From Chiloscyllium plagiosum (taxonomy: Eukaryota): a DNA stretch of 64,000 nt. Shown here piece after piece: positions 13,947-56,829 of this stretch (position 1 is the first letter of the stretch; each line of letters opens with the position of its first letter). The translations under genes and the position numbers were made by a program. The notes beneath the pieces are model-generated. The model was not told the DNA's origin. It saw only the letters and a program-made list of their open reading frames with translations, and made no database searches. The DNA is taken from positions 55,482,422-55,546,421 of the forward strand of contig NC_057718.1 of NCBI RefSeq assembly GCF_004010195.1, written 5' to 3'.

Positions 13947-13949
13947 ATT

Positions 13950-13969
13950 TAGGGGCTCAGGTCCGTGAT
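13950..13969 (+). promoter_or_regulatory. Primer binding site, tRNA-Pro-like (degenerate)
   Basis: TAGGGGCTCAGGTCCGTGAT directly after the LTR resembles TGGGGGCTCGTCCGGGAT, the complement of the tRNA-Pro 3' end. Confidence 0.7.
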
Positions 13970-14151
13970 TTGGATAGGTTTAGACAGGTCCAGTCTGAGA
14001 TCTGGACAGTTCTGAACAGATTTGGGGTACGAAAGATCCCGGCAGTTTTAAACACTTGTCGATTAGTGTCCTAGGTTTTTAAATAAAACGTAGAGAAGAC
14101 AATTTGTTTAATTTTGGTTACTCGTGGTTGGTTAAATTAAAAGTGAGAGAA

Positions 14152-17100
14152 ATGGCTCTTAAAACAGTTAAAGAGGTTCTGGGGTTTGAAGGTGATTCCT
14201 GAATTTGCCAAGAAAGTTTAGAAGGACAGAAAAAGACCATAATTTTAAAATTAGCAAAGAGGTTAGATTTAGGTTTAACTAAGGACAAAAGTAAAGCTGA
14301 AAGTGTAAGGGAGTTACTGAAACACTTAGGTGTGTCAGAGAAACAGACACAAACAGAGAAATAGGCAGTGGAGTTAGAAAAACTTAAATTACAATTGATG
14401 AAAATGGAGTTTGAAAATAAACAATGAGAGAGAAAGGAAAAAGAAAGCGAGAGAGAAAGAGACAGAGAAGAAAATGAGAGAGAGAGGAAAAAGAAAGTGA
14501 GCAAAGGTTCTTAGCAGAGCAAAGAGATAGAGAAGAAAGGGAGAGAGAAAGAGAGAAAAGAAAGAGAAAAGGAGAGAGAATTTGAATTTCAGAAGTTGTG
14601 ACTTAGTCAGGAAAGTCAAGTTAACAGGATGGAGAAGAAGAGAGAGGGTAGTGATATATATAAATATGTTAAAATACTGTCTCATTTTGATGAGAAAGAT
14701 GTCAAAGCCTTCTTTATTTCATTTGAAAAATTGGCTAGGCAGAGGGAGTGGTCAGAGGACTTGTGGGTAATGGTAGTTCAGACTAAACTGGTGGGCTGAG
14801 CTAGTGAGGTATTTGCAGAGCTGTCAGATGAGGAGTCAAGAGATTATGAAGATGTCAAACAGACTATTTTGAGTGCTTATGAATTGGTACCAGAAGTGTA
14901 TAGACAGTGGTTCAGAAACATAAAGAAGGATTCAGGTCAGACTTATGTTGAATTTGAATGAATTAAACATAATAATTTTGATAAATGGGTGTGGATAATA
15001 ATAGATAAGACCTATGAGTCTCTAAGACAGATTATTCTGCTGGAGTTTAAAAACTCACTTCCAGAAATGATAAGAATTCATGCGGTTGAACAGAAAGTTC
15101 GAGAAATCAGAAGAGCAGCAGAGGTGACAAATGAATATACATTGGTGCATAAGGCAAAGTTTAGCTTCTGGCAAGAATGTCTTCCTGTGAGAGATAGTAA
15201 TTGGGAGAAGGAGAGATTCCACACTACCAAACCAAGAGTAGAGAACACTGGTAATTGTTTACCACAGATTAAAAAAGAAGCCCAAGAGGGTGAAAGGATG
15301 TGAAAGGACTCAGGTGTTTCCACTGTAATAAGTGGGACACGTAAAGTCACATTGCTAGTCAATAAAAAAAGGCACTGTGGGAAAAGATGTGATAAAAGAA
15401 GCTAAGCCAGTGGCAATAGTGAAAGTAGTAAAGGAAACCCCAAGAAACGTCAAGGAGCTGCAGGAGAGTGCACAGCCTAGGTAGGGCTGGGAATAGAGCT
15501 AGTGCCTGATCTCTATAAAGAATTTATCTCTATGGGTAAAGTTTACGCAGAAAGAACAGGGAGAGAAGGGAAAGAAGTTACAACTTTGAGAGATACAGGA
15601 TCTAACTAGTCTCTAATACTAAGAGATGAACGTGTTTGCATTCTTTCTGACCTGTTACCCGAGAGAGTGGTAATTTGTGGGATAGATGGACAGAAATTTA
15701 GTGTTTTCCTACATAAGATCAGATTGGAGTGCCAACTTAAATCTGGGGAAGTAACAGTGGGAATGATTGACAGTGTGCCAGTTCCAGGAATACAGTTTGT
15801 TCTTGGGAACGATTTAGCAGGATCCAAGGTGGAAGTGACACCCCCTGATGTGGAAACGCTCAAGGAAGACCAGGGTGCAGAGAAGTTAAAAGAAAAGTAC
15901 CCTGGAAATTTCCCAGACTGTGTGTTAACAAGATCCTACTATCATAAATCACAGCACGAAGCAAAAACTAAAGAGAAAAATGAAGGAGTTGAAGTTCAGT
16001 TAGCGGATACCCTGTTTGACGTAATGATGTAGGAAAAACCTGAACAGTTGGAGGGTCAGGCAGAAGTGTTTATCCTGAAAGACTAATGGATTTACAACAG
16101 ACAGACAAGTCAATACAAGATATATATATTGATGCATACTCAGAAAAGGAGTCAGAGAATATTCCTGATGGTTATTATCTTAAAGATAGAATCCTAAGAA
16201 ACAAATGGATACCACGGCAGGTTAGTGCAGAAGAGAAATGGGCAGAAGTGCACCAGATTGTGTTGCCGGTAGCATACAGACAGGAAGTGTTACGGGTAGC
16301 ACATGAACAATTAGTAGGAGGGCACCTAGGTGTACAGAAGACTCAGGTTAAAGTACAAAAGCATTTGTATTGGTCTGGAATGCACAAGTATATGGTTAGC
16401 TACTGCTGTGCATGTCATACATGCCAAATGGTAAGTAAGCCACAGGCAGTAATAAAACCTGCAACTTTGTTGCCAATTCCCACATTTGAAGAATCTTTCA
16501 TGGGGGTTATAATTGATTATGTAGGTCCCCTCCCTAAAACTAAAAGAGGGAACCAGTACTTGCTAAGCATAATGGATGTGTCTACCAGATTTCCAAAGGC
16601 AATTCCATTATGGAGTATTAAGGTAAAAAGGGTGGTAGAGGAATTAGTAGCTTTCTTACATGGTTTAGGCTACCCAAGGGTCTAATTTTACTGCTAGGCT
16701 GTTTAAGGAAATCATGGATAGCTTAGGCAAACAGCATTGTAAATCAAGTGGGAATCATTCTGAATCCCAGGGAGCTTTGGAAGGTTGACCCCAAGGAGCG
16801 CAAAGATGAAGGCCATTGAGGATTTCCACGACTAACCTCAAAGAAAGAGCTGCTTCAATTTTTGAAACTAAGCAGAATCTACCAGAAGTTTGTTCCAAAC
16901 TTCAACAGCATAGTGGCACCACTAACAGATTTGCTGAAGAAGGACACAAAGGTTTAGTGGACAGAACAATGGCAATTCAAAAGCAGTATTAACCACCACA
17001 TTAGTTTTAGCTACACCAAACTTTTTGAAACCCTTCAAAGTTGCAACTAATGCTAACAACATAGGAGTTGGAGCTGTACTGCTACAGGACAATGATAATG

Positions 17101-17402
17101 GGATTGAACAGCCAGTTGGTTACTTTTCAAAGAAACTCAATACCCACAGGGAAAATACTCTCCGATCAAAAAGGAATTATTGAATTTTGCACTGCCCTTA
17201 CCACATTTTAATGTTTATGTGATGAACAATGTGTCAGATACAGTTGTGTACACAGATGACAATACTCTTATATTCTTGGAATGCTTTAAAAACAAGAATA
17301 TGAGACTATTTCATTGGAGTCTTTTGTTACAGACTTTTAATTTATAATTCGTACATGTGGGTCATAAGAATGTGATAGCAGATGTGTTATCATGGATTTA
17401 AC
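14152..17402 (+). pseudogene. Disrupted gag-pol of Gypsy element 1
   Basis: ORFs 14989-15303, 15667-16032 and 16086-16685 are fragments of one polyprotein broken by stops and frameshifts. Confidence 0.88.
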
Positions 17403-17542
17403 GGATAAAGTATAAATAAGATTGAACAGATACCAATTTTTTTATATATAAATATATGTGTGTGTGTATCCCATTGTAATGTGGTTCAGAATTAGAAAAG
17501 AACAAAAAACCATCTTTTCATTATGATGGTTCATTTTTTCAT

Positions 17543-17870
17543 AAGGGGGTAGGTGTCATGAAATTGAAGGTGTATACTGTACCTTTAAGAGAGAGTGAAA
17601 GTCGTTTTGGTAGTGAGAGTTTGCAGGCACCTGTCATTTGACTGACTAGCAGTCTCGGAGTGTACTGGAAAATTGAAAATATGTAACATATGGCTGCTAT
17701 GTTCACAACAGTTTGAATTTAACCAATCAGTTTAAATTATGCCCCAGGATACTAAAACCCAATTGAATTTGAATTTTACTGTTTTGAAAACATCGAACCA
17801 AAAAGATGATCTGATGTTTGGGGTATAAATAAGTTGGCATTTTGGAGAGCTAGCCAGAGAGAGAGAGAGC
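17543..17870 (+). repeat. Polypurine tract (17543-17553) and truncated 3' LTR (17554-~17870) of Gypsy element 1
   Basis: AAGGGGGTAGG then TGTCATG; homology to the 5' LTR stops at a (GA)n run adjoining a PLE terminus. Confidence 0.88.
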
Positions 17871-17902
17871 CGTTCAGGCAGCATCCGAGGAGCAGGAGAA
17901 AT

Positions 17903-17930
17903 GACGTTTCGGGCAAAAGCCCTTCATCAG
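17903..17930 (-). ncRNA. Minimal hammerhead ribozyme-like motif in a PLE terminus (intact core)
   Basis: Minus strand CTGATGA-A-GGGC-TTTT-GCCC-GAAA-CG-TC. Confidence 0.65.
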
Positions 17931-18179
17931 GAATACAACAAAACTAATTTGACCATCTGTTAACAGGTTGAATTCAGAAAACCTTTTAGTTTCCTCAGTT
18001 ATAACATTGAATATATACTATGACCTGTTGGCATTGTAATTGGATATTCTAAAACCAATTTTTTTTCAAACACAATTCTTAGATTCTCTCATTTACATTT
18101 CATTGCAAGGGAATCTTCTCAAGCATGAATATTGTCAAGCAATTTAATGACAAGTCATTTGAAGATCCTCTCTCAGTTT

Positions 18180-18639: not shown

Positions 18640-21270
18640 AGAGTCCGTTGTGGTCCAATTGATATCTTTCATGGCCAACAAGCAACATATCAGGAGAGCT
18701 ACTTGAGCACTGTGTTTCAGGAGACGGTCAAACCCTTTATATTAACTACTTCGAATTCGGTCAGTGGCCAGGGATAGATGGGCGTGACTATGAGTGAGGC
18801 GGGTAAAGGGATCCAGGAGATTGTGCAGAAGTAACCTCAGCCCTTGAATATGTCTAACAGTTTTGAGATTCTTGCTCCCTGTGTGGATGAGAGCGGGGGC
18901 GGAAGGGAGGATAAACAAACTGACCACTGTGTCATGGTACAGGGAGGAAAGAGAAATTTAGTTCTGACTGGGGTTAGCATAATTGGAGGATAGACACTGT
19001 TTTCTGTGGCCAGAATCAAGAGTCCTAAAGGCTGAGTCCTAACCTGGTGTTTGGGTTCAGGATATCATATCTGGGCTGAAGAAGAACTTGGAATGGGGTA
19101 AAAATCTAATTGCTATGGAACATGTAGATAGCAGCCATAAAGAAAGAGAAAAGATGTCTGCTGAGGGAATATGAGGAGCTAGGGACTAAATTTAAAAGCA
19201 GAACCAAAGAGGTAATAATCTCTGATCGCAACCTAAGCCACAAGCTAACTGCCACATGTCAACAAGATTAAAGAGGTAAATGTGTGGCATAAAGATTGGT
19301 GTGGGAGAATAAATGTCCTGAACATAAAAAGCCAGGACATATCCAACTCGGCCAATTACTGCCCATCAATCTACCCTTGATCACCACTAAAGTGATGGAT
19401 AGTGTCCTCTACAGTTCTATCAAGTAGCACCTGCTGAGCAATAACCTGCTCAGTGTTGCCCAGTTTGGATTCCACCATGTTCACTCAGCTCCTGACCTCA
19501 TTACAGTCTTGGTTCAAACATGGACAAAAGAGCTGAATTCCAGAGGAGAAATGAAAGTGACAGCCCTTGACATCAAGGCCATATTTAATCACATGTTGTA
19601 TCAAAGAGCTGCAGCAAAACTAGAATCAATGGGTATCAGGGGCAAATTCTCCATACCTGGCACATAGGAAGATGGTTGTAGTTGTTGGAGGTCCATCATA
19701 CATTGCAAGGTGTCTCTGCAGGATTTCCTCAGGGTAGTGTCCTCGGCCCAACCATCTTCAGCTGCTTCAGAAATGACCTTCACGGTATCATAAGTTCAGA
19801 AGCAGGTGTATTTGCCAATAACTGCACAATTTTCAACACCATTCACAACTCCTCAGGTACTGAAGCAGTCCATGTTCAAATGCAATGAGATTTGGGTAAT
19901 ATTCAGGCTTGAATTGTCAAGTGCCAAGTAACATTTCCTGCCACACAAATGCCAATATCACTCATAGTGGGGGGGAGGAATGGTTAGAGGCATTCAGTGA
20001 TGGTAACACCATTGAATGTCAAAGGGCAGTGGTTAGATTGTCTCTTATTGGTGATGGTAATTGCTTGGCATTTGTGATGTGAATATTACTTACCACTTTC
20101 TGGATTAGTGGTGCTGGAAGAGCACAGCAGTTCAGGCAGCATCCAAGGAGCAGTATACATTACTTGCCACTTGTTAACCCAAGCCTGGATATCGTCCAAA
20201 TCTTGTTGCATTTGAACATTGAATACTTCAATACCTGGGGAGTTGCAAATCGGGTTGAACATTGTGCAGTCATAAGCAAATATTCCTACTTCCAACCTCA
20301 TGACTGATCAAAAGCTGAACTGGACTTGCCAACATAAACACAGTGACTACAACTGCAGGCCAGGCGACGAATGCTGTGGTGAGTAACTCACATTCTGGCT
20401 CCCCAAAGCCTGTCCACCATCTACAAGGCACAAGTCAGGACTGTGTTAGAATAATTGCCACTTGCCTGGATGGGTGCAACTCCAACAACACTCAAGAAGC
20501 TTGACACCATCCAGGACAAAGCAGCCCACTTGAGTGGCACTACATACACAAGCATCCACTTTCTCCACCATTGACACTCAATAGCAGCAATGTGTACTAT
20601 CTAGAAGAAGCATTGCAGAAATTCACCAAAGATCCTCAGACACACCTTCCAAACCCACAATTACTTCTATCTAGAAGGACAAGAGCAGCAAGTATATGAG
20701 AACACCATCACCTGCAAGTTCCCCCCAAGCCATTCACCATCCTGACTTGGAAATAAATCATTGTTGCTTCACTGTTGTTTGGTCAAAATCCTGGAATTTC
20801 CTTCCTAACGGCATTGTGCGACAACCCACAGCAGGTGGACTGCAGCCATTTAAGAAGACAGCTCACCACCACCTTCTCAAGGAGAAAGTGAGGACTGCAG
20901 ATGCTGGAGAGTCAGAGCCAAAAAGAGTGGTGCTGGAAAAGCACAGCAGTTCAGGCAGCATCTGAGGAGCAGGAGAGCTGACGTTTCCAACATAAGAATG
21001 CAGAGGGGGAAGAAGGCTGAGAGATAAATATGGAAGTGGGAATTAGGCTGGGGTGGGGGGGGTGGATACAGGTGGGAGGTAATTGAGATAGGTCGGGGGG
21101 GAAGGTGAAGTGAATAGGTGAGAAGGAAGATGGAAGGTAGGACAGGTCAAGAGGGCAGTGCTGTGTTGGAGGATTGGATCTGTGATGGGATGGGTGGAGT
21201 TGCCCTTCTCAAGGGCAATTAGAGATTGGCAATAAATGCTGGCCAGCCAGAGATGTCCACAGGTGAATTT
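18640..21270 (+). mobile_element. Composite CR1-clade fragments (ORF1 esterase then RT and 3' end), with an inverted copy at ~19960-20302
   Basis: Esterase remnants ~18950-19300; GFPQGSVLGPTIFSCFRNDL (19682-19888); opposite-strand GIFAYDCTMF...QQDLDDIQAW (20086-20301). Confidence 0.78.
20883..21203 (-). mobile_element. PLE 3' fragment inserted in a CR1 tail, 11-bp TSD
   Basis: CCTTCTCAAGG at 20872-20882 and 21204-21214; sequence matches 34030-34330. Confidence 0.75.
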
Positions 21271-21789: not shown

Positions 21790-23590
21790 TAATCTGTTCA
21801 TTGGGTGTGGGCTTCACTGGGTAGGTCGACATTTTATTGTTCATACCTAACTGGCCTGAAGAAGGTGATGGTGAGCTTCCTTCTTGAAATACTGCAGTTC
21901 TTGGTGTGTACAAGCACTCAAAATGCTGGTCGGAAATGAGTTCCAGCATTTTGAACCAAAGACAGTTATGGAATGTGGTATAGTTCCAGGTAAGGCTGGC
22001 TTCTGGCTTGAGTTGAGGATTTCATAGGTGTTGTTGAACATTTGTTGGGTACCGGCAGCTTATCTCATCGGGTGGATGGTACACAATACTGCCACTGTGT
22101 GTTGGTAGTGAAGAGAGTGAATGTTGAAATAAATAGATATGGTGCCAATCAAGTGGGATACTTTGTCCTGAATGATGTTGAGATTCTTTAGGATGTTGTG
22201 GCTGTACAGGACATTAGTTAGGCCACTTTTAGAATATTACGTGTGATTCTGGTCTCCCTCCAATTGAAAGGATGTTGTGAAACTTGAAAGGATTCATAAA
22301 AGATTTACAAAGATGTTGCCAGAGTTGGAGGATTTGAGCTACAAGGAGTTGCTGAATAGACTGGGGCTGTTTTCCCCAGGAGCGTTGTAGGCTGAAGAGT
22401 GACCTTATAGAGGTTTATAAAATCATGCGGGGCATGGATAGGATAAATAGACAAGGTCTTTTCCCTCGGATGGGGGAGTCCAGAATCAGAGGGCATAAGT
22501 TTATGGTGAGACGGGAAAAGTTTAAATGGCACCTAAGGGGCAACATTTTCATGCAGAGGGTGGTGCGTGTATGAAATGAGCTGTCCAAGGAAGTGGTGGA
22601 GGTTGGTACAATTACAATATTTAAAAGTACCTGGATAGGTATATGAATAGGAATGGTTTCGAGGGATATGGGCCAAGTGCTGGCAAATGGGACTAGATTA
22701 GGTTAGGATATTTGGTCAGCATGGACGAGTTAGATTGAGGCTATATTTCCATGCTGTACATCTCTATGACTCTATGTTGGAGCTAAATCTAGACAAGAAG
22801 AGAGTATTCCATCACATTTGTGACTTGCACCTTATAGATGATAAAAAGCATTGTAGAGTATGGTAGATGAGTTGCTTTCCGCAGAATTTCTAGTCTCTGA
22901 CCTGCCCTTGCAGCCACTTTATTTAAATGGCTGAACAAATTCATTTTCTGATTAATGGTCACCCCAGGATGCTGGAATGTGGAGATTTCAGTGAGGTAGT
23001 GCCTTTGAATGCCATGGAGCAAATGTCAGATTTTCTCTTCTTGGAGATGGTCATTGCCTGGACTGAATGTTACTTGCCAGTTTTCAGTGCAAACTTAGAT
23101 CCACCCGAGCCTTGCTGCACTTGGGCTTGGACTTCACTGTATCTGAGGAGTTGTAAATAGTATTGAATATAGTATTGTCCTTATAATAGAAAGAGGATCA
23201 TCGCTGAAAATGGTTAGGTCCAAGATACTATCCTAAGGAACTCATGCAGTGAAGTTCTTGGACTGAGGGGATTAACTTTCAACAACCACAACCATAATCT
23301 TTCTTTCTAGGTATGACTTTAAAGGGGAGGGATTTCTCTTGATCTTCATTGACTCCAGTATTGCTGGGGCCCCATGGCATGCTCAGCCAAATGCTGCCTT
23401 TATGTTATTTTTGTCTATTTTTGGGCGAAGGCTGCAATAAAGTCAGGAGCTGAGTGGCCCTGTGGAACTCATGCTAAGTACTAGGGAACATATTTTCTTT
23501 TGTAAAGGTTGATTGATAGCACTATAACTTTTTCCATCATTTTGTTGACAATCAAGTGAAGACTCATAATGCAGTAATTTTGCCAAGCTG
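21790..23590 (-). mobile_element. Degenerate CR1-clade LINE hosting a younger CR1
   Basis: IYKVQVTNVMEYS (22789-23022) and KKEAHHHLL 3' end; same family as 19300-20880. Confidence 0.72.
22191..22775 (+). mobile_element. Young 5'-truncated CR1 LINE
   Basis: LYRTLVRPLLEYY..FWSP..KDVVKLER; ends CTCTATGACTCTATG; near-identical to 58781-59920. Confidence 0.92.
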
Positions 23591-24366: not shown

Positions 24367-24517
24367 GGAGAAAGTGAGAACTGCAGCTGCTGGATATCAG
24401 AGTCGAGAGTGTGTTGCTGGAAAACCCTTCATTCTTGATGAAGGGCTTATGCCCGAAACGTCGATTCTCCTGCTCCTCAGATGCTGCCTGATCTGCTGTG
24501 CTTTTCCAGCAACACAT
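24367..24517. mobile_element. Fold-back PLE-terminus insertion with 22-bp TSD and hammerhead-like motif
   Basis: TCTCAACAGTAATTATAAAGGA at 24345-24366 and 24518-24539; TTGATGAAGGGCTTATGCCCGAAACGTC at 24435-24462. Confidence 0.85.
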
Positions 24518-24853
24518 TCTCAACAGTAATTATAAAGGAAATCATATAGATATATATTAATCCTTGGACAACACAATGAATACTTAAAGATATGAAAATT
24601 CAAAGAGATAAATTGGGGATTGAAAAAATATACCCCCACAGACAAACTTACAAACATACAGAATTTCAATAAAACGGATTTACTTCCTGGAGAGTAATTA
24701 TTTCAAAATTACAATAGTAGTTACCCTAAATTTGGTATGAAAAAGTCTCAGTGAGATGACATTCTAAACATATCACTATGAAGAACTGAAACAGAACACT
24801 ATCAGAAAGACAATTCTTAACAAGGAAAAGAAAGGTGAGCCTGGTCAGAACAG

Positions 24854-25151
24854 TTAGATTAGATTAGATTACTTACAGTGTGGAAACAGGCCCTTCGGCC
24901 CAACAAGTCCACACCGACCCGCCGAAGCACACCCACCCATACCCATTCCCCTTCCCCTACATTTAACACTACGGGCAATTTAGCGTGGCCAATTCACCTA
25001 ACCTGCACATTTTTTTGGACTGTGGGAGGAAACCGGAGCACCCGGAGGAAACCCACGCAGACACGGGAAGAATGTGCAAACTCCACACATTGAACCCGGG
25101 TCTCTGGCGCTGTGAGGCAGCAGTGCTAACCACTATGCCACCGTGCCACCC
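24854..25151 (-). mobile_element. HE1/V-type tRNA-derived SINE
   Basis: Minus strand GGTGGCACGGTGGCATAGTGGTTAGCACTGCTGCCTCACAGCGCCAGAGACCCGGGTTCAA, V-domain core, (TCTAA)n tail. Confidence 0.92.
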
Positions 25152-27254: not shown

Positions 27255-27725
27255 AAACAAGGATGTTGCCAGGGTTGGAGGATTTGAGCTATAGGGAGAG
27301 GCTGAACAGGCTGTGGCTGTTTTCCCTGGAGCGTCGGAGGCTGAGGGGTGACCTTACAGAGGTTTACAAAATCATGAGGGGCATGGATAGGATAAATAGA
27401 TAAAGTCTTTTCCCTGGAGTGGAGGAGTCCAGAACTAGAGGGCATAGATTTAGGGTGAGAGGGGAAAGATATAAAAAAGACCTAAGGGGCAACTTTTTCA
27501 TGCAGAGGGCAGTACGTGTATGGAATGAGCTGCCAGAGGAAGTGGTGAAGGCTGGTACAATTGCAACATTTAAAAGACATCTGGATGGGTATATGAATAG
27601 GAAGGGTTTGGAGGGATATGGGCTGGGTGCTGGCACGTGGGACTAGATTGGGTTGGGATATCTGGTAGGCATGGACAAGTTGAACCAAAGGGTCTGTTTT
27701 CGTGCTGTACATCTCAATGACTCTA
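27255..27725 (+). mobile_element. Young 5'-truncated CR1 LINE inside an older minus-strand CR1 (~27120-28325)
   Basis: ORF 27419-27646 SRTRGHRFRVRG...FFMQRAVRVWNELP; tail CTCAATGACTCTA. Confidence 0.9.
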
Positions 27726-28020
27726 AGAGGCCATTCGGCCTATCAAGTCTCAATGACCCTTCAAAGAGTATCCCACTTTATCCCCATAATTTATCAATAT
27801 TTAACTCACCTATGTTACACATCCCAGGACACTATGAACAATTTAGCATAGCCAATCCACCTAATCTGCATGTCTTTGGACTGTGAGAGGAAGCCAGAGC
27901 ACTCAGCAAAAAACTATGCAGACATGGTGAAAACATGCAAACTCCATCCAGTTATCCAAGGCTGAGAATCAAATCTGGGGCCCTGGCACTAAGAGGCTGT
28001 AGTGGTAACCACTGAGCCAC
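27726..28020 (-). mobile_element. Degenerate HE1-like SINE
   Basis: CAATTTAGCATAGCCAATCCACCTAATCTGCA...AACCACTGAGCCAC matches other SINE copies. Confidence 0.75.
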
Positions 28021-29132
28021 TTGCTGTACTAGTAAGCCAACATTTTGTGATTCATGTACAAGGAGACTTTGTATCTCTGAGTTCTGCAATCACTCCAAAT
28101 AAGTATCACACTGCTTTTCTATTCTTTAGAATCTCTACCTCCTCTTAACAACCTGCTTTCATACTTGGTGTCATCAGCAAATTTAGCTATCATATATTTG
28201 AATGCCACATCAACCATGTGATGAAAGTCCCAGGACTGATTGCTATGGCACTCTGCAAGTTATATCTTGTCAACCCAAAAAAGGTCCATTTATCCCCTCT
28301 ACATACTTCCTGTTAGTCACTGGGCAATATAAAAATGGGATTTGAGAAATATTAAATAACTTACCTAAAATAACAAACAGATACTAGAAAGGTGTCAACC
28401 ACTAGTTAAGTTAATATATTTCAAAACCAAAGCATTCAGATACATGATCCGCTTACGCACAAGATATGTTTTATACAGGCTTGCTGAAATTTACTATGCT
28501 CTGATTTCTTTTCAGCCATTGTTTGTGCTGCCAGATGGTTCTTCAACTTTAATTTCATGCCTAATATTGTTCCAACTTTCACAATGAATTTCTAATCAGG
28601 AAATGCAATAGCATGAGAATTGCAACCTGTGTCAGTGAAAGCTAAAAATTTGCTAAATCTGATTTGGCTGATATGCTTCTCTATTAATCACTAGCAAATT
28701 AATCAGATATGCAAATGGTTTATAGTTTCCCTAACTGCACATCTCCACTTATTCAGAAACATTTGCAATTTCTTAGATAATTTTAGGTTATTTTAATTTT
28801 TATGAGTAACAATGAATTATGCACCTGACTCAACTCTAAAGTGAGCATGAAAAATTAATAATTAGGTTTGGTCTATTGGTCTATTGCCAAGTATTAAAGT
28901 GAGCTTTCATCAGCTGAAAACTAATATGATACATGAGAAATCTTCAGTTTCATATTTCCAATTATCTTTTTTCATTCTAAACCACTGTAACAATGCATCA
29001 TACAATATTTTTCAGTGGGGTGGCCAAAAGATGGAAAGTGAGCATCTTCCACAATGGGACGAAATAAACATCAGACTAGTTATACTTAACTTTTCCAATG
29101 AATGACACAGGGCCTGGTACACCATGATCATT

Positions 29133-29316
29133 GGGAGAAAGTGAGCACTGCAGATGCCAGAGATCAGAGTTGAAGAGCGTGACAAGATTCCTGATGAAGG
29201 GCTTATGCCCGAAACGTCGATTCTCCTGCTTCTCGGACGCTGCTTGACTGACTGTGCTTTGCCAGCAGTACACTCTCGACTCTGATCTTCAGCATCTGGA
29301 CTCCTCACGTTCTCCT
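29133..29316. mobile_element. Fold-back PLE terminus
   Basis: Inverted ends GGAGAAAGTGAG...CTCACGTTCTCC; contains a hammerhead-like core. Confidence 0.8.
29191..29218 (+). ncRNA. Minimal hammerhead ribozyme-like motif (intact core)
   Basis: ATTC-CTGATGA-A-GGGC-TTAT-GCCC-GAAA-CG-TC-GATT. Confidence 0.68.
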
Positions 29317-31015: not shown

Positions 31016-33587
31016 GATTGGAGTTTCTTGTAGGGATCGATTCTATAATTCTAATTTGGGTTTAGGGTTGTTGAACTCAAAGGCGGTGAATGGTAGGTGT
31101 TGCAAGTATTGAATTAAATTGGTTTAAACAGTGCTTGGTGGAGTAATGGATCTTTCAGTCACTAAGAGTTTTCTGGGGCTGGAAGAAGTGACTTTGCTGA
31201 TTTTACAAAAGGTGAGCAAGGCAAAGCTGCTGGAATTGGCAGACAAGCTGGAGTTGGGGTTGCCTTCATCTGTGAGAAAAGGAGATGTAATTACAGCTAT
31301 AGCTTGGCATTTACATTTGCTGGAAATGCCATCAGAATCTTTGGAAACGGCTCAAATTCAATTGCAAATGAGGCATCTTGAACATGAAAAGGAATTGAAA
31401 TAACTTGAATTACGGTTAAAGGCAGAGGAAAGAGAAAAGGAATGAATTGCCTGAGCAAAACAAAAGGAAAAGGAAAGAATTGCTGTGGCAGAAGAGAAAG
31501 AAAAGGAGAGGAAGTCTCTAGCAGAGCAAAGGGTGAAAGAGAGTTTGAACTTCAGACATTGGCACTTAGACAGAAAAGTCAGCTTAAAAGGATGGAATTG
31601 AAGACAGAAGATAAGCTCAGTGAGGAGGATGGTAAGGATGAACATAGCCAAAAGCCTGATGGAGATCTGTTTAAATATATCCAAACATTGCCTAAATTTG
31701 ATGAGAAAGATGTAGAAGCCTTTTTCGTCTCATTTGAAAAAGTAGCTAAACAAATGCAGTGGCTCTTGATTTTGTTGATCCAAACAAAGCTGATAGATAG
31801 AGCTAGTGAGGTATTTGTAACACTATCAGAGGAGGTATCTGGGGAATATGAGGAGGTTAAGAAAGCCATCTTAAATTCATATGAGCTTGTGCCAGAAACC
31901 TACAGTCAACATTTCAGGAATCTAAGGAGGGACCCTGGTCAAATATACATTGAGTTTGAAAGGATCAAAACAATTTTGATAGATGGATAAGGGCATTAAT
32001 AATAGATCAAACGTATGATGCTCTTAGAGAGATAATTGTTTTGGAGGAGTTCAAAAATTCACTTCCTGAAGTAGTGAGAACTCATGTCGAAAAGCAGAAT
32101 TAAAACAGCAAGATTAGCAGCTGAAATGACTGATGATTATGATTTGATTCATAAATCATAGTTTGGCTTCCAATATCAATTTCAATGTGTGAAGTTCAGG
32201 AGCAGCAGGTGAAGATGTTACGGTATTAAGAGATATGGGTTCATGTTAATCTTTGATGTTGAGAGATGAGGAGATATGTAACTCATAGGGACTATTGTCA
32301 GAAACACTGCTAGTATGTGGAATTCATGGTGAGACAAGAAGTGTTCCATTATGTAGAGTGAGGTTAGAGTGTCCAATGAAAATTGGAGAAGTAGTAGTGG
32401 GAGTACTAGAAAACTTCTTGGCTCCAGAAATACAATTTGTCCTTGGTAACAATATGGTTGAGGTAGGAGTGCTGTCCACTGTGGTTGCAAAGCCAGTGGA
32501 AAATCAGACAACTGAGGTATTACAGGAATTATATCCTTGGGATTTTTCCTGATTGTGTGGTAACAAATTCACAAAACCATCAGTTCAAACAGTTGGAGAA
32601 ATCAAAGAATACAGATAAGGAAGTTGAGGTAGACTTATCAGAAACCATGTTTGATCGAATGGTTGAAAGAAAACAAGAACAGGTGGAGGACAAAGTGGAC
32701 ATTGTTACCTCAGACTGAGTCACAAAAGAAAGATAAAAACCTGAAGCAATTGTACCAAAAGGCATTTATGGGAGAAGAATCTGAGTGTATTGTAATATGC
32801 TACCATCTTAAAAGAGAAATCTTGATAAAGAAATGGAGACCATCACATATTCAGGCAGGTGAGAAATAGGCAGAAGTTCATCAAATTGTATTATCAGTGA
32901 GTTGTGGAAAGGAGGTGTTGTGGGTAGGACATGAATTACCAGTACGAGGTCATCTAGAGGTAAGGAAAACTCGAACTAAAATACAAAAACATTTTTTAAC
33001 TGGCCTGGACTGCATAAGGATGTAATTGAATCTTGCCAGACATGTCATACATGTCAGGTAATTAGAAAAACGTAGGCAACAATAAAATAGTACCTTTAAT
33101 ACCCAATCCTACATTTGAAGAACTTTTTACAAGGGCCTTAATTAATTGCATAAGACCCCTACCTAAACAAAGTGGGAATCAGTATATGTTAACAATAATG
33201 GATGTGTCCACTAGATATCCAGAGGCCATTCCATTGTGTACAGCTATTAGGGTTATACAACAGTTACTCAAACTTTTCACTAAATATGGACTACCCACAA
33301 AAATATAATCAGATCAAGGATCAACATTTACATCAAAATTATTCAGGCAAGTTATAGAATCTTAGGAATAAAATAATTCAAATCCACTGTGTACCATCCA
33401 GAATTGCAGGGAGCACTGGAAAGGTGGCATCAGATGTTAAAGACCATGTTAAGGGCTGATAGTCAAGAGTATCCAAATGATTGGGATAAAGGAATTCCAT
33501 TTGTATGTTTTGCCATTAGAGATGTACCAAGTGAATTTATCACTTTCAGTCAATTTGAATTAGATTTTGGGCATGTTGAGAGAAGAC

Positions 33588-33891
33588 GGGGCGGCACGGT
33601 GGCACAGTGGTCAGCACTGCTGCCTCACAGCACCAGGGACCCGGGTTCAATTCCCACCTCGGGCAACTGTCTGTGTGGAGTTTGCACATTCTCTCCGTGT
33701 CTGCGTGGGTTTGCTCCGGTTTCCTCCCACAGTCCAAAGATGTGCAGGTTAGGTGGATTGGCCATGCTAGATTGCCCGTAGCGTTAGTTGAAGGGGTAAA
33801 CATAGGAGAATGGATCTAGGTGGGTTGCTCTTTGGAGGGTCGGTGTGGACTTGTTGGGCTGAAGGGCCTGTTTCCACACAGTAAGTAATCT
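33588..33891 (+). mobile_element. HE1/V-type SINE inserted in the integrase of element 2
   Basis: GGGGCGGCACGGTGGCACAGTGGTCAGC (A box), GGTTCAATTCC (B box); AAGAC duplicated at 33583-33587 and 33892-33896. Confidence 0.93.
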
Positions 33892-34022
33892 AAGACCACT
33901 GAAATTAATTCAGGAGAAATTGACGAGTCAGAATTCAGAGACCACATATTTGGACTAAGTGCCAAATTTTAGGCAATGGTTAAATAGAGTGGGGGAATTG
34001 ACTAGACAGCATTTAAAAATAG

Positions 34023-36423
34023 TCAAAAACTGTGGTGCTGGAAAAGCATAGCTGGTCAGGCAGCATCCGAGGAGCAGGAGAGTCGATGTTACAAGCCGAA
34101 ACTATTCATCAGGAATGTGGGGGAGGCCAAAGGGGGAGAGAGAGATAAATGGTAGGGGGGTGGTGCTGGGGGCAAAGGTAGCTAGGAATGCAATAGGTAG
34201 ATGAAGGTAGGGGGTGATGGTAATAGTCTGGAATGGAGGGTGGAATGGATATATGGAAAAGAAGATGGACAGGTAGGACAGTTCAAGAGGGCTGTGCCAG
34301 GTTGGAGGGTTGAATCTGGGATAAGGTGGGGGGAGGGGAGATGAGAAAATGAAATCAACATTGATCCTGTGTGATTGGAGGGTCCCAAGGCAAAAAATGA
34401 GGTGTTCTTCCTCCAAGCATCGGGTGGCTAGAATCTGGTGGTGGAAGAGGCCTATGACTTGCATGTCCTTGGTGGAGTAGGAGGGAGAGTTGAAGTGTTC
34501 AGCCACCAGGCAGTAGGGTTGATTAATGCATGTGTCCCAGAGATGTTCTCTGAAATGTTCCACAAGTAGACATCCCGTCTCCCCAATGTAGAGGATACCA
34601 CATCGGGAGCAACAGACACAGTAGATAACGTGTTTGGAGGGGAGGAAAATTTCTGTTGGATGTGGAAGGATCCTTTGGGGCCTTGGATGGAGGTGAGGGG
34701 GGAGGTGTGGGTGCAGATTTTACACCTCCTGCGGTGGCAATGAAAGGTGCCTGGAGTGGAGGCTGGGTTGGTGGGGGGCATGGACCTAACATGGGAGTTG
34801 CGGAGGGAATGGTTTCTGGGAAATGTTGATAGGCTGGGAGCAAAATATATCTCTGGTGGTGGGGTCTATTTGTAGGTGATGGAAATGGCGGAGGATGATG
34901 TGTTGGTTGGGTGGAAGGTGAGGACCCGGGAGGTTCTGTCCTTGTTGCGATTGGAGGGGTGATGTTCAAGGGCAGAGGTGTGGGAAGTGGAGGAGATATG
35001 CTGGAGGATATTGTTGACCACATGGGAGGGGAAGTTGTGGTCCTTGAAGAAGGAGGCCATCTGGGATTTTCTATGGTGGAATTGGTCTTCCTGAAAGCTG
35101 AAGCGGTGGACACAGAGGAATTAGAAGTAAGGGATAGCATTTTTACAGGAGGTAGGGTGGGAGGAGGTGTGGTCCTGGTAGCTATGGGAGTCGATAAGTT
35201 TGAAGTAGATGTCTGTGTTGAGACGTTCACAGGAAATGGGGATGGAGAGGTCCAGGAAGGGGAGGAGGGTGTCCAAGATGGTCCAAGTGAACTTGAAGTC
35301 AAGGTGAAAGGTGCTTGTGAAGTTGACTCAACTATTCAACCTCCTCGTGGGAGCACGAGGTGGCGCCGATACAGTTATTGATGTAGTGGAGGAAAAGATG
35401 GGGAATGGTGCCAGTGTAGCTGCAGAAGATGGACAATTCCATGTGCCCGACAAAGAGGCAGGCATAGCTGGGGCCCATGCGGGTGCCCATGGCTACCCCT
35501 TTGTTCTGGAGGTAGTGGTAGGATACTAAGGAGAAATTGTTGAGGATGAGGACCAGTTCAGCCAATCTAATGAGTATGTTGCTGGACGGTACTGGCTGGG
35601 TCAGCGGGAGAGGAAGAAATAGGGGACTTGGAGGTGGATAGATGTGTATAGGGACTGGGTATCTATGGTGAAGATGAGGCATTTTTGGCCAGGGAACCGA
35701 AAGTCATGGAGGAGATAGAGGGTGTTGGTGGTGTCTCAAATGTATATGGGGAGATCCTGGACCAAGGGGGACAGAATAGTGTCAAGGTATGCGGAGATAA
35801 GTTTGGTGGAGCAGGAGCAGGCTGAGACGATGGGTTGACTGGGGTGAGTTTTTGGGTAAGAGGTAGAACCAGGCGTTGTGGGGTTCTGGGACTATGAAAT
35901 TGGAGGCTCTTCCTGGGAGATCCCCTGACATGATGAGGTTTTTGATGATCTGGGAGATGATGGTTTGGTGATGGGTGGTGAGGTTGTGGTCGAGGGGGCA
36001 GTAGGAGGAGGTGTCTTTGAGCTGGCACCTGGCTTCAGTGGTGTAAAGTTTAGTGCGCCAAACTACTACTGGTCCCCTCTTGCTGGTTTGATGGTGAGGT
36101 TGGGATTGGAGCAGAGGGAGTGGAGGGCTGCACATTGTTAGGGTGAAAGGTTAGAGTACGTGAGAGGGGTGGACAGGTTGAGGCAATCGATGTCACAGCG
36201 GCAGTTGGAAATGAAGAAATTGAGGGTGGGTAACAGACCATCGCAGGGTGTCCAAGTGGATGGAGTGTGTTGGAGGCGGGAGAAGGGGCCCCTCAGTCAG
36301 TGGGTGGGAGTTCAGATGGAAAAAGTAAGCATGGAGGCGGAGGCAGCTGAAGAAAAGTTTAATTTCGCAACGTGCGTTGAATTCATTGATCCGGAAGCAT
36401 AGTGGAATGAAGGTGAGGCCTTC
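34023..36423 (-). mobile_element. Penelope-like element (RT + GIY-YIG endonuclease), disrupted
   Basis: KGLTFIP N-terminal block (~36420); YLQNKGVAMGTRMGPSYACLFVG...FLHYINN (decayed RYIDD); CHRRRCKIC, RFREH-like and VAEHFNSPS GIY-YIG region; terminal repeat at 34023-34115. Confidence 0.9.
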
Positions 36424-37963
36424 ATAGTATATGATAAACAGGAAGCAAACATGAAATCAAAAACTTGCAATTTTGCTAATGGAGGTAAAGTATTAATGTT
36501 ACTTGCAGTAATAGGTGAGTCTTTAAAAGTAAGGTTTGGTGGACCTTATCAAGTTGAAAGGAAATTGAGTGAGGTGAACAATTTGATAGGGCTCCAGACA
36601 GAAAGAAACCTCATAGAGTGTGTCATGTGAATATGCTCAAAAGGTATTTTGAGAGGGAAGTAAAAGGAAAATGTGTTACTGGTTACAATACAGAGTGGAA
36701 AACCAAGTTCAGAGGATTCTGAATTGGATATTCCTCAAATTAAATTGGACAATGAGGAAGCTGTCAAAAATTGGAATAAGTTATTGAGTTACCTTCCAGA
36801 GAAAATTGAAATAACCTGAAAGAGTTATTGCTATCACATGGGGAGATATGTGGAAATAAACTGGGAAGTACTAACTTAATTTTGCATGATGTAGATATAG
36901 GAAATGCTGTTCTAATTAAGCACCATCCTTATCGATTTAACCCTCTAAAGTTGACACAGGTTCAAAGTGAGATTGAACGTATGCTTCAAGACAACATAAT
37001 CTAAGTGAATTGCAGTGACTGGAGCTCACCCATCATAATGGTGCCAAATCCAGATGGTATCCAATGGTTATGTGTAGATTATTGCAAAGTCAATGCAGTT
37101 AGAAAGTCTGATTCATATCTGATTCCATGTTTGGAAGACTGGATTGGGAAGGTGACACAAGCAATGTGCATTTCTAAGTTGGATTTACTCAAAGGATAAC
37201 TGGCAGGAACCCTTATCCACAAGAAGATAATTTCAGCTTTCATAACACGGAATGGACTGTATCGATTTAAAGTCATGCTATTTAGTATGAAAAGTGCGCC
37301 AGCCACATTTCAAAGACTAACCAATAAAGTCATTTCTGGATTACCCAACTATGTGGCATACATTGACGACCTGGTGATTTTTAGTCACATATAGAAGGAA
37401 CATTTGCAGAGCTTATCAGAATTATCGGGAAGCAGGCTTGCTGATAAACCTGGCTAAGAGTGGATTTGCCAAAGCCCAAGTCATGTTCCTGGACCATGTT
37501 ATCGGACACGGACAGATGGCTCCACGGAATGTGAAAGCAAAGGTTATTGGGGAATTTCCTATACCATCGACAAAGACAGCAATACTATGATTCCTGGGAT
37601 TGAGTGTGTTTTATCAGGAATTTGTACCGAATTTTAGCAGTGTGGTTGCTCCATTCATTGAATTACTGAAGAAATGCAGGGAGTTTTAGTGAATGGCAGA
37701 TTTTGAGAAAGCATTTGACAGCCTGAAGGCTGTGTTAACCACTGCCCCAGTATTAGCCACACCTATTTACGCAAAGCCATTCAAGGTGGCTATCAATGTG
37801 AGTGATGAGGGTATCAGTGCTGTACTCTTACAAGAAGACGACCAAAAGATAGAAAGACTTAGTGGATAGTTTTGCAGGAAAATGAACATTCATCAACAGA
37901 AATATTTGACAATTGAGAAGGAGACCTTGAGCTTGTTTTTGGCTTTACAATATTTCAACATTT

Positions 37964-38223
37964 ATTCCAGCCTTGGGCGACTGTCTGTGTGGAGTTTGCA
38001 CATTCTCCCCGTGTCTGAGTGGGTTTCCTCCGGGTGCTCCGGTTTCCTCCTACAGTCCAAAGATGCACAGGGCAGCTGAATTGGCCAAGTTAAATTGCAC
38101 ATAGTGTTAGGTGCATTAGTCAGAGCGAAATGGGTCTGGGTGGTTTACTCTTCAGAGAATCGGTGTGGACTTGTTGGGCCGAAGGGCCTGCTTCCACACT
38201 GTAGGAAATCTAATCTAATCTAA
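37964..38223 (+). mobile_element. 5'-truncated HE1/V-type SINE inserted in the RNase H of element 2
   Basis: V-domain CTGTGTGGAGTTTGCACATTCTCCCCGTGTCT; tail AATCTAATCTAATCTAA. Confidence 0.9.
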
Positions 38224-38592
38224 TGTTGCCAGTAATCTGTCTGAGACAATCATATATACTGATCATAACTCGTTAAAGTTTTTGTACAACTTAAGGACAA
38301 AAATTACAGACTGTTTAGATGGAGCTTATTTTTGCAGCCATTCAATTTGAAAATTATGCATGTGGCAGGACGAGAAAACGTAATTGCTGACATATTGTTG
38401 AGACTTGGATGAAAAAACGAATGCATTCAGTGACAGGAGTAAATGGACGGAAATAGAATGTAGTAATGAATGTTTGCATGGTGATAGTCAATGCAATGTA
38501 TGTTTATTGTAGCATACTAACAATGTAAGACTAAGGGATCCAAAATAAAGCCATCTTTATATATTGGTGGTTCATTTTTTTAAGGGGGGAGG

Positions 38593-38969: not shown

Positions 38970-39400
38970 CTGACCTAGAATCCCTCTGTTCAGGATATGT
39001 CCTGAGTGAGGCTATGCAATTGCCTTCATTCAAGAGATGAGAAAGTGAGGACTGTGGATACTGGAGATCAGAGTCAAAAAGTGTGGCACTGAAAATGTAC
39101 AGCGGATGAGGCAGCATCTGAGGAGCAGGGGAGTTGACGTTTTGGGCATAAGAGGAATTAATGATGTCCACTAAGCTCAGTCATCCTAGTGAGCATGTCC
39201 ACTTCCATCAGCATACCCTTTATGTCATGTTCTCCACTTGCTGCATTTTCCAATGATAAAGCCAGTTGTAGTGCCTGTTGAAGACCAGCTCGTAGTCTTC
39301 TTTGCATGTTTACATAATTAATTCCACTGTCATCACCACTGCAAAAGCTCCACAGAGGCAGGTATTCTGCCACCCCTACACTTACCAATCCATAGTACTT
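38970..39400 (-). mobile_element. Gypsy element 3, gag remnant (with a PLE fragment at ~39035-39155)
   Basis: ORF 39158-39388 GINYVNMQRRL...QQALQLALSLENAA resembles Gypsy gag; same strand and collinear with 29317-30556. Confidence 0.68.
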
Positions 39401-39659: not shown

Positions 39660-40790
39660 ATTTTCCCCAGTAAACCCCCACACTACTGCCAAACAGCGGT
39701 AGTGCTTATTTAATCCCCAGCACCCACGTCATGAAAAGAAACCCCCCAAGAGGTCAGTGGCAAGCAGTGTCCTTCTCAATAAAGGGTGATGCCTAAGTGA
39801 TCAAAAAAGTGAAGGGGAGGGCAAGGACTAAATCAAAATAGAATCAGAGGGGGAAATAAAACACTCTGCACCCCGCAGTGCCCACCTCTCCCTGAAAATC
39901 TTGAGTGTGTTGGTAGACACCGGGTACTCCTTCTCAAGGGACACCCGGGCCTGAACACAACCGCAGAAGAGGAGAAGGCAGTTAGCCATAACAACTCCCT
40001 CCGCTGCCCGCTGCCTGGACCTGTTTATGGCCAGCTTGACCAGGCCCAGGAATAGACCGACAAGGAGGTCCTCAAGAGTGCCCTCCCCTCTCCACACCAG
40101 GTGCCTAAAGATCAGGATCATGGGGCTGATGTGCAACCAAAAACATGAAAAAAGATCTTTAAGGAAAACAAAAAGGGAGTGCAGATGCCACAACCCATAT
40201 GAACATGGTCCACGAACTCCACAGCACAACAGAACATACAGTTAGGCTGAGAGTTCGTGAACTAGGAGAAAGGGCTTATGCCCGAAACGTCGATTCTCCT
40301 GCTCCTCAGATGCTGCCTGGCCTGCTGCGTTTTTCCAGCACCACATTTTTCAACTCTGGTCTCCAGCATCTGCAGTCCTCACTTTCTCCTGACATTCCTG
40401 AAGAAGGGCTTATGCCCAAAACGTCGATTCTCCTCCTCGGATGCTGCCTGGCCTGCTGCACTTTTCCAGCACCACATTTTTCAACTCTGGGAGTTCGTGA
40501 ACCACTGCAATCTGCGGTTGCAGGGGACTGCTTCATGCAACACCCTCCACCCGAGATCCCCAAGTGAAAGGGGAGGACTCCTGTGTAGAGAGCCCTCCAC
40601 TGAGGATTCCCATTGCCTGGTGGTAAATGGGCATACCAAGATGCGTCAGGGCAGTGGATAAGGGAGAAGGAGTGGATGGTGTGCAGCAGCAGTTGATAAA
40701 TGGCCCGGCGTTTAACATCCCTGAAGGGGACAAAACTAAAACCCCTGGGGGTGGCTCAGGTTGTGGGGCACAGGCTCCTGCTGGAGTGAC
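39660..40790 (-). mobile_element. Tx1/L1-like LINE 3' fragment
   Basis: WRVLHEAVPCNRRL zf-RVT-like region and ORF 39828-40229 (EDLLVGLFLGLVKLAINRSR...FRERWA). Confidence 0.75.
40263..40490 (+). mobile_element. Tandem PLE-terminus dimer with two hammerhead-like motifs, 12-bp TSD
   Basis: GAGTTCGTGAAC at 40251-40262 and 40491-40502; AGGGCTTATGCCC at 40271 and 40405 (134-bp period). Confidence 0.82.
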
Positions 40791-40934
40791 ACTCTGATTG
40801 GACCAGGTTAACAGCCCAATCAGAAAACCTGGCTGACCTTGTTACAATCACTACAAGGACCATCTATTTTTATTTCTCTGTATTTTTAATTGTGGACTGA
40901 AATGGGGAAATAATTGTTTTAAAAGACAAGAATT

Positions 40935-41733
40935 AGAGTCATAGAGATGTACAGCATGGAAACAGACCCTTCGGTTCAACCTGTCCATGCTGACCAGATA
41001 TCCCAATCCAATCTAGTCCCACCTGCCAGCACCTGGCCCATATCCCTCCAAATCCCTCCTATTCATATACCCATCCAAATGCCACTTAAATGTTGCACTT
41101 CCTAACACTTCCTCTGGCAGCTCATTCCATACACATACCACCCTCTGTGTGAAAAAAATTGCCCCTTAGGTCTTTTTTATATCTTTCCCCTCCCACCCTA
41201 AACCTATGCCCTCTAGTTCTGGACTCCCCAACCCCAGGGAAAAGACTTTGCCTATTTACCCTATCCATGCCCCTCATAATTTTGTAAACTTCTATAAGGT
41301 CACCCCTCAGCCTCCGATGCTACAGGGAAAACAGCCCCAGCCTGTTCAGCCTCTCCCTATAGCTCAAATCCTCCAACCCTGGCAACATCCTTGTAAATCT
41401 TTTCTGAACCCTTTCAAGTTTCACAACATCTTTCCGATAGGAAGGAGACCAGAATTGCATGCAATATTCCAACAGTGGCCGAACCAATGTCCTGTACAGT
41501 CGCAACATGACCTCCTAACTCCTGTACTCAATACTCTGACCAATAAAGGAAAGCATACCAAACGCCTTCTTCACTATCCTATCTACCTGCAACTCCACTT
41601 TCAAGGAGCTATGAACCTGCACTCCAAGGTCTCTGTGTTCAGCAACGCTCCCTAGGACCTTACCATTAAGTGTATAAGTCCTGCTAAGATTTCCTTTCCC
41701 AAAATGCAGCACCTCGCATTTATCTGAATTAAA
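40935..41733 (-). mobile_element. Young 5'-truncated CR1 LINE
   Basis: ORFs 41515-41712 and 41320-41508 (LYRTLVRPLLEYCMQFWSPSYRKDVVKLERVQKRFTRMLPGL); CTCTATGACTCTA tail. Confidence 0.93.
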
Positions 41734-42364: not shown

Positions 42365-43310
42365 TGTAGCCATAGTATATAAATGGCTGGTCCAGTTTAG
42401 TATCTGGTCATTGGCAAACCCCAACTGCTATCCCCGCCAGAATGTTGATAATGGAGAAATCAATGATGATAATTCCATTGAATGTCAAGGAGTGATGGTT
42501 TGATTCTCTCTTGTTTGATGTAGTCATTGTTGGCACTTGTATGGGACATATGTTCCTTGCCACTTTAGCTAGATGTGTCCAGATTTTGATGCATGTGGAC
42601 TTGGACTCTTCAGTACCTGAGGAGACATGAATGGTACTGAACATTGTGCCATCATTTGCAAATGGTCCCACTTCTGACCATAATGAAGGAAACGTCATTG
42701 ATGAAACAATTGAAGATGATTGGATTTGGATATTACCTGAGGAACTCTTACAGTGAGATGTTTGACCTACTCTTATGTTGAGATGATTGACCTGCAACAA
42801 TCACAAACCATCTTGTTTTAGTAGATTAGATCCCCTTCAGTGTGGAAACAGGCCCTTTGGCCCAACAAGTCCACACTGACCCTCTGAAGAGTAACTCACC
42901 AGAGACCCATTCCCCTCTGACTATTGCATCTAAAGCTATGGGCAATTTAGCTTGGCCAGCACATTTTTGGACTGTGGGAGGAAACCATGCAGACACAGAG
43001 GGACTCTGCAAACTTCACACAGACAGTCGCACAAGGCCAGAATCAAACCTGGATCCCTGGCGCTGTGAGGCAACAGTGCTAACCACTGAACCACCATTCC
43101 ACCCCAAACAGTGGAAAGCATTCCTCTGATTCCTATTGACTGCAGGTTTGCTAGGATGTTTTGATGCTATATTTGCTTTGGTGTCAAGAACAGTCAATCC
43201 CACCTCATCTCTGGAGTTCAACTTTTATTTCAGTGTTTTGACCAAGGCTGTAATGAGGTCAGGAGCTGCATGCCCCTAGCAAAATCCATACTGAGCATCA
43301 GTGAGCAGGC
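42365..43310 (-). mobile_element. Degenerate CR1-clade RT fragment interrupted by a SINE
   Basis: SEVGPFANDGTMF (42408-42800) and LTVLDTKA (43015-43221). Confidence 0.7.
42821..43105 (-). mobile_element. HE1/V-type SINE
   Basis: Same body as 24854-25151, with a TCTAATCTA tail. Confidence 0.88.
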
Positions 43311-43489: not shown

Positions 43490-43575
43490 AAAAATACTGG
43501 AAATCACAACGGTTCAGACAGCATCCAATGAGAGCAAGCTAACATTTCAAGTCTAAATGACTCTTCATCAAAGTC
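43490..43575 (-). mobile_element. PLE terminus (second subfamily) with hammerhead-like motif
   Basis: Minus strand TTGATGA-A-GAGTC-ATTTA-GACTT-GAAA-TG-TT-AGCT. Confidence 0.6.
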
Positions 43576-56751: not shown

Positions 56752-56829
56752 ATGTGCCTTCAAACTTTTCTAGTGAAATTTAAATAAATGAGAATTGGAG
56801 AATACTGGAGTCACACAAAAAGCAAAGAC

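Follow-up and report, generated by a model that had tools for sequence, protein, structure and literature searches.

In this work we analysed a window of 64,000 nucleotides of the Chiloscyllium plagiosum genome (the whole stretch of DNA under study, NC_057718.1, positions 55,482,422 to 55,546,421) and find that the hammerhead-like motif at 29187-29222 is the minimal hammerhead (min-HHR) already described in Penelope-like elements (PLEs), one of very many and mostly decayed copies. The reading that we favour, to which we give a probability of about 0.88, is that these motifs are min-HHRs in the pLTR of endonuclease-bearing, Neptune-like PLEs, and that the dispersed copies are dead-on-arrival and probably inert. 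The motif itself, its site about 220 nt after a frame for reverse transcriptase (RT) and GIY-YIG endonuclease, the compensated stems and the more than 10^5 copies rest on the data presented here. In the mechanism that we propose, the hammerhead fold would be kept under selection in a few active master elements, where its job would be the processing of the element's RNA, and cleavage after C17 would occur only with help, either from a second copy giving helix III by ACGU:ACGU pairing or from the element's own protein. The dispersed copies, the one at 29187 included, would arise dead-on-arrival when reverse transcription begins in the tail (+80 to +95 or +125 from C3) and halts, most often, at the first base of the ribozyme or continues upstream; they would then decay neutrally, largely at CpG, and stay without effect in place.

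Results

The motif at 29187-29222 and its copies in the window

The motif lies on the forward strand and was found, letter for letter, as a sequence-only reading of the window had given it: ATTC (29187-29190), CTGATGA (29191-29197), an extra A (29198), GGGC/TTAT/GCCC (29199-29210), GAAA (29211-29214), CG (29215-29216), TC (29217-29218) and GATT (29219-29222), with the predicted cut between 29218 and 29219. It is a minimal type I hammerhead of the family that we call A, and has the features of the published min-HHR: a CUGANGA...GAAA...NUH core, complete here and in two of the ten sites of that reading in all; an unpaired base between 9 and 10.1 (A29198); a palindromic 15.2-16.2 (the CG at 29215-29216) replacing helix III; a stem II of 4 bp; and a short helix I closing the type I fold. 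ATTC/GATT had been taken for a full stem I, which is incorrect, as a U.U mismatch lies inside it (C-G, U-A, U.U, A-U, i.e. three pairs of four). The base between 9 and 10.1 is A or U in 20/20 fetched motifs, from search patterns that demanded one, and the G10.1-C11.1 pair is present in 14/14 aligned motifs, but it was demanded by the search patterns and is hence not independent. The extra A and the ACGT palindrome had been proposed to be a shark-specific version of the ribozyme. Both are already in the published PLE min-HHR consensus (PMC4209133), and we reject a shark-specific architecture, as the extra base, the ACGU palindrome, the missing helix III, the dimer action and the U3-A8 variant are all published min-HHR traits (PMC4209133).

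A chance origin of the motif is also rejected. Four places in the window (29191+, 17930-, 6063- and 3275-) match a min-HHR descriptor that requires a paired stem II of 4 bp, versus a mean of 0.035 in 200 dinucleotide shuffles of the same window (maximum 1, with one match in 7/200), and a search of the 3.56-Gb genome with CTGANGAHG-N8-22-CGAAACGTH gave 132,158 exact matches, about one per 27 kb, versus 52 for the reversed control. An Rfam covariance-model scan of the whole window gave no match at E<=5.

The 29187 motif heads a repeat of about 130 nt. The direct end piece spans 29187-29315, its part downstream of the ribozyme (pLTR and tail, 29223-29315(+)) ending at the commonest 3' end, +125 from C3, and an inverted copy of its last ~48 nt (29134-29181(-)), predicted to pair with the direct tail, abuts the 5' end of the ribozyme. 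A DNA search with 29150-29310 returned 2,718 candidates, and all of the 40 that were scored matched (top identity 87-91%). The nine further sites of the sequence-only reading are all present, and the window holds copies beyond them, for example at 34021-34120(-), 20881-20997(-), 39039-39152(-) and 20108-20153(-). The proposal that the core is nearly fixed stands across families and fails for the individual sites, since a full core is found only at 29187 and 17903 and, among the ten sites, only 29187 has kept both the core and most of stem I.

The other family A copies are damaged in various ways. The short copy at 17868-17934(-) has an intact core and has lost stem I (one pair of four at 17903), and the short copy at 48814-48895(+) has U4 changed and the palindrome broken (48815). 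The rearranged copy at 5975-6118, of mixed orientation, is made of a tail (5975-6032(-)), a hammerhead with a broken palindrome (6034-6063(-)) and an inverted tail piece (6073-6118(+)), while the copy at 24431-24520(+) (hammerhead site 24435) carries U3.G8 and has an inverted tail piece upstream, at 24367-24424(-). The 3' fragment at 20881-21182(-) retains about 200 nt of element upstream of a partly deleted hammerhead, and the end piece at 39039-39152(-) begins within stem II. Two end pieces form a direct tandem of period 134 at 40270-40489(+), in which neither register contains a full core, because the first unit lacks the 5' core (40271) and the second (40398) has G12, the proposed general base (PMC6155905), changed to A. 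Two hammerheads are of the family B type, one decayed, with U3.G8 and a broken palindrome (43537-43575(-)), the other damaged in GAAA-CG (54275-54311(+)). Finally, the copy at 3141-3279(-), whose ACGU palindrome is lost, had been listed (as 3241) among the CUGANGA motifs; it belongs to family C, a young family whose core has U3 and A8, and this core swap had been overlooked.

Families B and C, as well as some family A copies, carry a pyrimidine run ending in AG between the ribozyme and the tail ATG (about 3215-3240(-), 54312-54325(+), 24463-24482(+)); it is splice-acceptor-like, and the RNA reads on the repeat gave no evidence of splicing. Other repeats are also found in the window. Decayed remnants at 13187-17868 and 31409-33781, 67-70% alike, were assigned by eye as LTR-retrotransposon-like, the first of them with 319-nt direct repeats (13187-13504 and 17551-17868, 89% alike) and integrase-like frames between these. 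LINE-like 3' ends, 81-93% alike, lie at 58762-59915 (with an RT-like frame at 58762-59463), 40933-41733, 22193-22776, 27257-27727 and 50415-50622. A dispersed repeat of about 300 nt, SINE-like in size and 72-84% alike, occurs at 24849-25151, 33588-33893, 37961-38227, 42819-43105 and 47100-47396, and a segment of about 330 nt is duplicated in tandem at 56093-56752 (94% alike).

Families and compensatory changes

Several families had been proposed to be spread genome-wide, and pattern searches of the genome recovered at least five, labelled A to E in this analysis. Family A is the dominant GGGC/GCCC type; family B has a 5-bp stem II (among 546 pattern matches), family C has the U3-A8 core (1,792 matches in the genome, control 0), and families D and E, both with a long stem II, make up most of the 100 matches listed first out of 20,029. 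An abundant long-stem-II group with U as the extra base, which makes up most of these matches listed first (an example is locus L041), is absent from the sites of the sequence-only reading, and one long-stem-II family carries a fixed purine mismatch in stem II.

Twenty motifs were fetched, of which 13 were hand-picked and aligned with the window motif, giving 14 motifs of five families. Of the 164 cells of the named structure 93.9% are paired, versus 24-41% in slid controls, and eight of the 12 pairs show double changes, in agreement with the claim that the stems change between families yet keep pairing. In stem I 87.5% of cells are paired and all four pairs are doubly changed, the core-adjacent pair being C-G (family A), U-A (families B and C) or A-U (families D and E); within family A, most copies seen have a U.U or U.C mismatch in this stem. 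As the set was chosen by core-matching patterns, which biases it towards the structure, and comprises about five independent lineages, the covariation lends support to the fold but is no formal test of significance.

The core of family C is itself changed on both sides. By eye, the first 100 listed of its 1,792 matches comprise 94 U3-A8, five C3-A8, one U3-G8 and no C3-G8, and the switch is one compensated event in a master copy. Positions 15.2-16.2, left free in the pattern, are most commonly CG, most others being TG or CA. The window copy shares 94-99% identity with its 40 best matches, as befits a young family. Family C copies (about 1,800 exact matches) often occur in inverted pairs.

The carrier element

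The window contains a decayed, 5'-truncated PLE at 34021-36438(-), in which remnants of an RT, a Cys linker and a GIY-YIG endonuclease are followed by ~220 nt, a hammerhead and a tail. The coding remnants (34333-36438(-)) are broken by frameshifts and stops, and the hammerhead, at about 34081-34116, is decayed. The cleaner RT piece matches Pfam RVT_1 (E=2.9e-7) and has 183 longer homologous proteins, the best two labelled Chiloscyllium punctatum (83% and 78%); the six homologs tested tile 34342-36432(-), and PF01541 (GIY-YIG) is carried by 25 of the 120 listed (of 183). The endonuclease piece gave GIY-YIG at E=0.011, under the cut-off, and its atlas neighbours include GIY-YIG in 11-27% of members. 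No family was returned by Pfam for 12 X-read frames, and a PDB sequence search with the RT piece gave no match. The CX2-5CxxC linker was read directly in locus L063, and is present in the window copy with its last Cys changed; in 108 of the 120 homologs listed, the C-terminal half contains a pattern that fits it. From the combination of RT, Cys linker and GIY-YIG endonuclease we infer that the carrier is a Neptune-like EN+ PLE; this assignment is made by build and linker, and the linker marks Nematis as well as Neptune PLEs (PMC8557442).

The association recurs elsewhere in the genome. An 82-aa RT piece has 28,108 candidates in the genome, and all of the 150 scored match. In 22 of 30 RT loci an end piece lies on the same strand 846-1390 nt downstream, which, together with the window copy, bears out the idea that PLE termini carry the hammerhead-type motifs; seven of the 30 have an inverted end piece upstream, and eight lack the downstream one, two of these eight being at contig ends. 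Heavy 5' truncation, an inverted 5' copy and an optional tail, the PLE layout described in PMC8557442, are all encountered in these shark elements. The pLTR location is shown for family A, by tail similarity only for families B and C, and at one RT locus for family D. A GIY-YIG family search of the genome gave one weak match among 150 scored. Many apparent open frames at the RT loci are runs of N, and so were rejected as intact genes. A start of the ORF in the tail gained no support: an ATG-started tail frame, apparently common to families A and C, matches none of the 120 homologs listed.

Insertion ends and the possible start of the RNA

Insertion ends were taken from 118 blast hits in the window and in fetched loci, the latter biased by the queries that fetched them. 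Relative to C3, 64 hits have their 5' end more than 30 nt upstream, three at -30..-9, 20 at -8..+2, 11 at +3..+24, one at +25..+31, and 19 further down; the cut site is at +28. The 3' ends cluster at +80..+95 and +124..+126, which resembles the PLE tail signature (PMC11167929). Among the first 100 listed of 116,384 family A matches, read by eye, about 36 run into the element, about 32 are joined to an inverted piece and the remaining ~32 to other or unclear sequence, so that about 64 lack element sequence 5' of stem I; nearly all of the joins lie no more than a few bases from the first A of this stem. Among the first 100 listed of 162,204 tail matches, also by eye, about 90 reach through the cut site into stem II and about 3-5 begin within 2 nt of it. 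The short copies of the window likewise begin at or near the first base of stem I (29187, 17934, 24431, 40394, 48814, 6064). As short copies start at the first base of the ribozyme and not at the cut site, the template of the insertions was probably uncleaved RNA, in line with the anole study.

The simplest reading of a preferred reverse-transcription stop at the first base of the ribozyme is that the RNA begins there, and the bases around the first A of stem I resemble an initiator. Rival readings are that structure causes the stop, or that the endonuclease cuts at ATT, the site preferred by the anole PLE enzyme (PMC11167929). Drosophila Penelope has an internal promoter, yet its start lies upstream of an intron (PMC2377424). 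We tentatively raise the idea, which we think rather unlikely to be correct, that the ribozyme occupies transcript +1 (the first ~36 nt of the RNA) and acts as a decapping switch. If so, cutting would remove the cap and 32 nt, distinguishing a capped copying template from a decapped RNA; the ~130-nt copies would be complete reverse transcripts of uncleaved RNA, from the tail to the RNA 5' end; the mismatch in stem I of family A would be due to an additional role as start site; and the more than 10^5 fossil ends would map the start site and show that insertion does not involve cleavage.

Folding, dimers and expression

Without helix III a monomer should be inactive, and two copies can build helix III by ACGU:ACGU pairing (PMC4209133); in Schistosoma mansoni, cleavage was weak for min-HHR dimers and absent for monomers (PMC4209133). 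The anole PLE ribozyme cleaves only with the element's protein present, in which case C3/G8 changes rescue cleavage, and it is dispensable for insertion in vitro, no RNA-seq reads ending at its cut site (PMC11167929). The 29187 monomer is predicted to form an inactive hairpin of -11.4 kcal/mol, in which the core strand pairs with the cut-site strand, and by nearest-neighbour energies the active dimer would be less stable than the best alternative duplex in 6/6 motifs, by 16 kcal/mol for 29187. These energies, which ignore tertiary contacts, suggest that the ribozyme would need help to reach its active form. Exact close tandems, counted at a spacing of 85-115 nt, are rare and number 137 genome-wide. 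Obligate-dimer action had been proposed for these motifs and is the published model, but it gains no support from the energies, the rarity of close tandems or the protein-dependent cleavage of the anole ribozyme. Minisatellite-like arrays of ~27-41-nt hammerhead-only units were also seen (G000:C7:77281088, C7:77962992, C15:63676068 and C2:20694027); some have complete cores, and they could dimerise in cis if transcribed.

In RNA run X6, of which about 2% was read, 1,557 reads fall on the repeat, on both strands, nine of them at >=99% identity, with zero depth on the unique left flank (28800-29105) and no pile-up of read starts or ends. In a second run, X7, no read falls on the repeat, which carries no weight either way. 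Cleavage ends are hard to see in a poly(A) single-cell library, and the reads speak neither for nor against cleavage. They show at most transcription at the level of the family. In one contig labelled as a second organism, the sequence extends from the left flank by 36 letters into the inverted piece, which suggests an insertion common to both organisms.

Discussion

The main alternative to a working ribozyme in active elements is a fold that is conserved in the shark families and no longer cleaves, persisting instead as a pLTR element that acts as promoter, start site or protein-binding site, or simply hitch-hiking. We judge this unlikely. It would agree with the lack of a preference among copies for starting at the cut site (1/118 at +25..+31 versus 20/118 at -8..+2, and the ~3-5/100 listed tails near it), with the mismatch in stem I of most family A copies seen, and with the hairpin predicted for the 29187 monomer; in addition, the anole ribozyme is not needed for insertion in vitro and leaves no RNA-seq ends at its cut site (PMC11167929), and Naiads thrive without a hammerhead (PMC8557442). 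On the other hand, the catalytic core is kept in all five families while the stems change in pairs, and in family C the 3-8 pair has been switched on both sides, which is what selection for catalysis predicts, and the anole motif does cleave when the protein is present, with C3/G8 rescue (PMC11167929).

The short copies could form an independent, non-autonomous SINE- or retrozyme-like family with its own short or circular RNA and dimer cleavage, a reading that we consider improbable. The lack of upstream element sequence in about 64/100 listed family A copies, the 94-99% identity of the best 40 family C matches and the existence of pLTR-derived tandem retrozymes, reported also in one chondrichthyan (10.64898/2026.07.22.740005), point in this direction; yet the 137 exact close tandems face 116,384 and 162,204 single matches, the copies are not units running from cut site to cut site, and the ~32/100 with an inverted partner and ~36/100 running into the element look like ordinary PLE truncation. 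A tandem retrozyme was rejected, as 29187 is solo with an inverted piece, the 40270-40489 tandem is broken and exact close tandems at 85-115 nt number 137 genome-wide. It is more improbable by far that the host has taken over the 29187 copy as a ribozyme that acts in cis within one of its own transcripts. Its full core, kept in spite of ~10% divergence from its best relatives, and an insertion that looks shared with the second organism could be read in this way, but one intact core among ten is expected from the 132,158 exact cores in the genome, no intact same-strand partner lies nearby, the motif is within a predicted hairpin with the inverted piece, the flank has zero depth and just 9/1,557 reads are at least 99% alike (run X6). 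Host adoption was rejected. In conclusion, a min-HHR of Neptune-like PLEs, dispersed as dead-on-arrival copies, remains the reading that we prefer.

Comparison with known systems

PLE min-HHRs have been known since 2014 (PMC4209133), and the shark motifs share with the metazoan ones described there the CUGANGAH core, the extra base between 9 and 10.1, G10.1-C11.1, a short helix I, the palindromic 15.2-16.2 without helix III, the pLTR location, the predominance of single dispersed copies and the coexistence of several consensus families in one genome. The Nematostella and Acropora rows of Fig. S3 of that paper show the same build as the 29187 motif, a U3-A8 variant is published there for S. mansoni, and the 4-bp stem II of family A is at the short end; Table S1 of the paper and the Fig. 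S3 rows examined contain no cartilaginous fish. The 132,158 exact matches are far more than the ~4,000 in coelacanth and ~9,000 in Xenopus (PMC4209133), with descriptors that differ. Canonical type I hammerheads (Rfam Hammerhead_1 and relatives) have the same core boxes and topology, but possess a helix III and a 6-bp helix I, neither of which exists here, and the shark motifs have no Rfam match. Animal non-LTR retrozymes are, like the copies here, short pLTR-derived units with a type I hammerhead; they form tandem units with complete motifs, whereas the window copies are solo or inverted and their sole tandem is broken (10.64898/2026.07.22.740005).

As for the carrier, Neptune-type EN+ PLEs have, like the shark element, a single frame for RT and C-terminal GIY-YIG, a CX2-5CxxC linker, heavy 5' truncation, an inverted 5' copy and an optional tail of 30-40 bp (PMC8557442). 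The Anolis Poseidon element PAc shares the pLTR hammerhead, the two preferred 3' ends and the use of unprocessed RNA as insertion template; its ORF starts within its ribozyme, and the Poseidon clade, unlike the shark element, is without the Cys linker (PMC11167929). In a literature search, with most subscription journals outside its scope, no paper dealt specifically with PLE hammerheads of sharks or with short copies that begin at stem I. What this shark genome adds is the scale, a vertebrate U3-A8 family that constitutes a natural compensatory test, and fossil insertion ends; the function of PLE hammerheads has been called unclear (PMC8557442), and these ends bear on what hammerheads do for PLEs.
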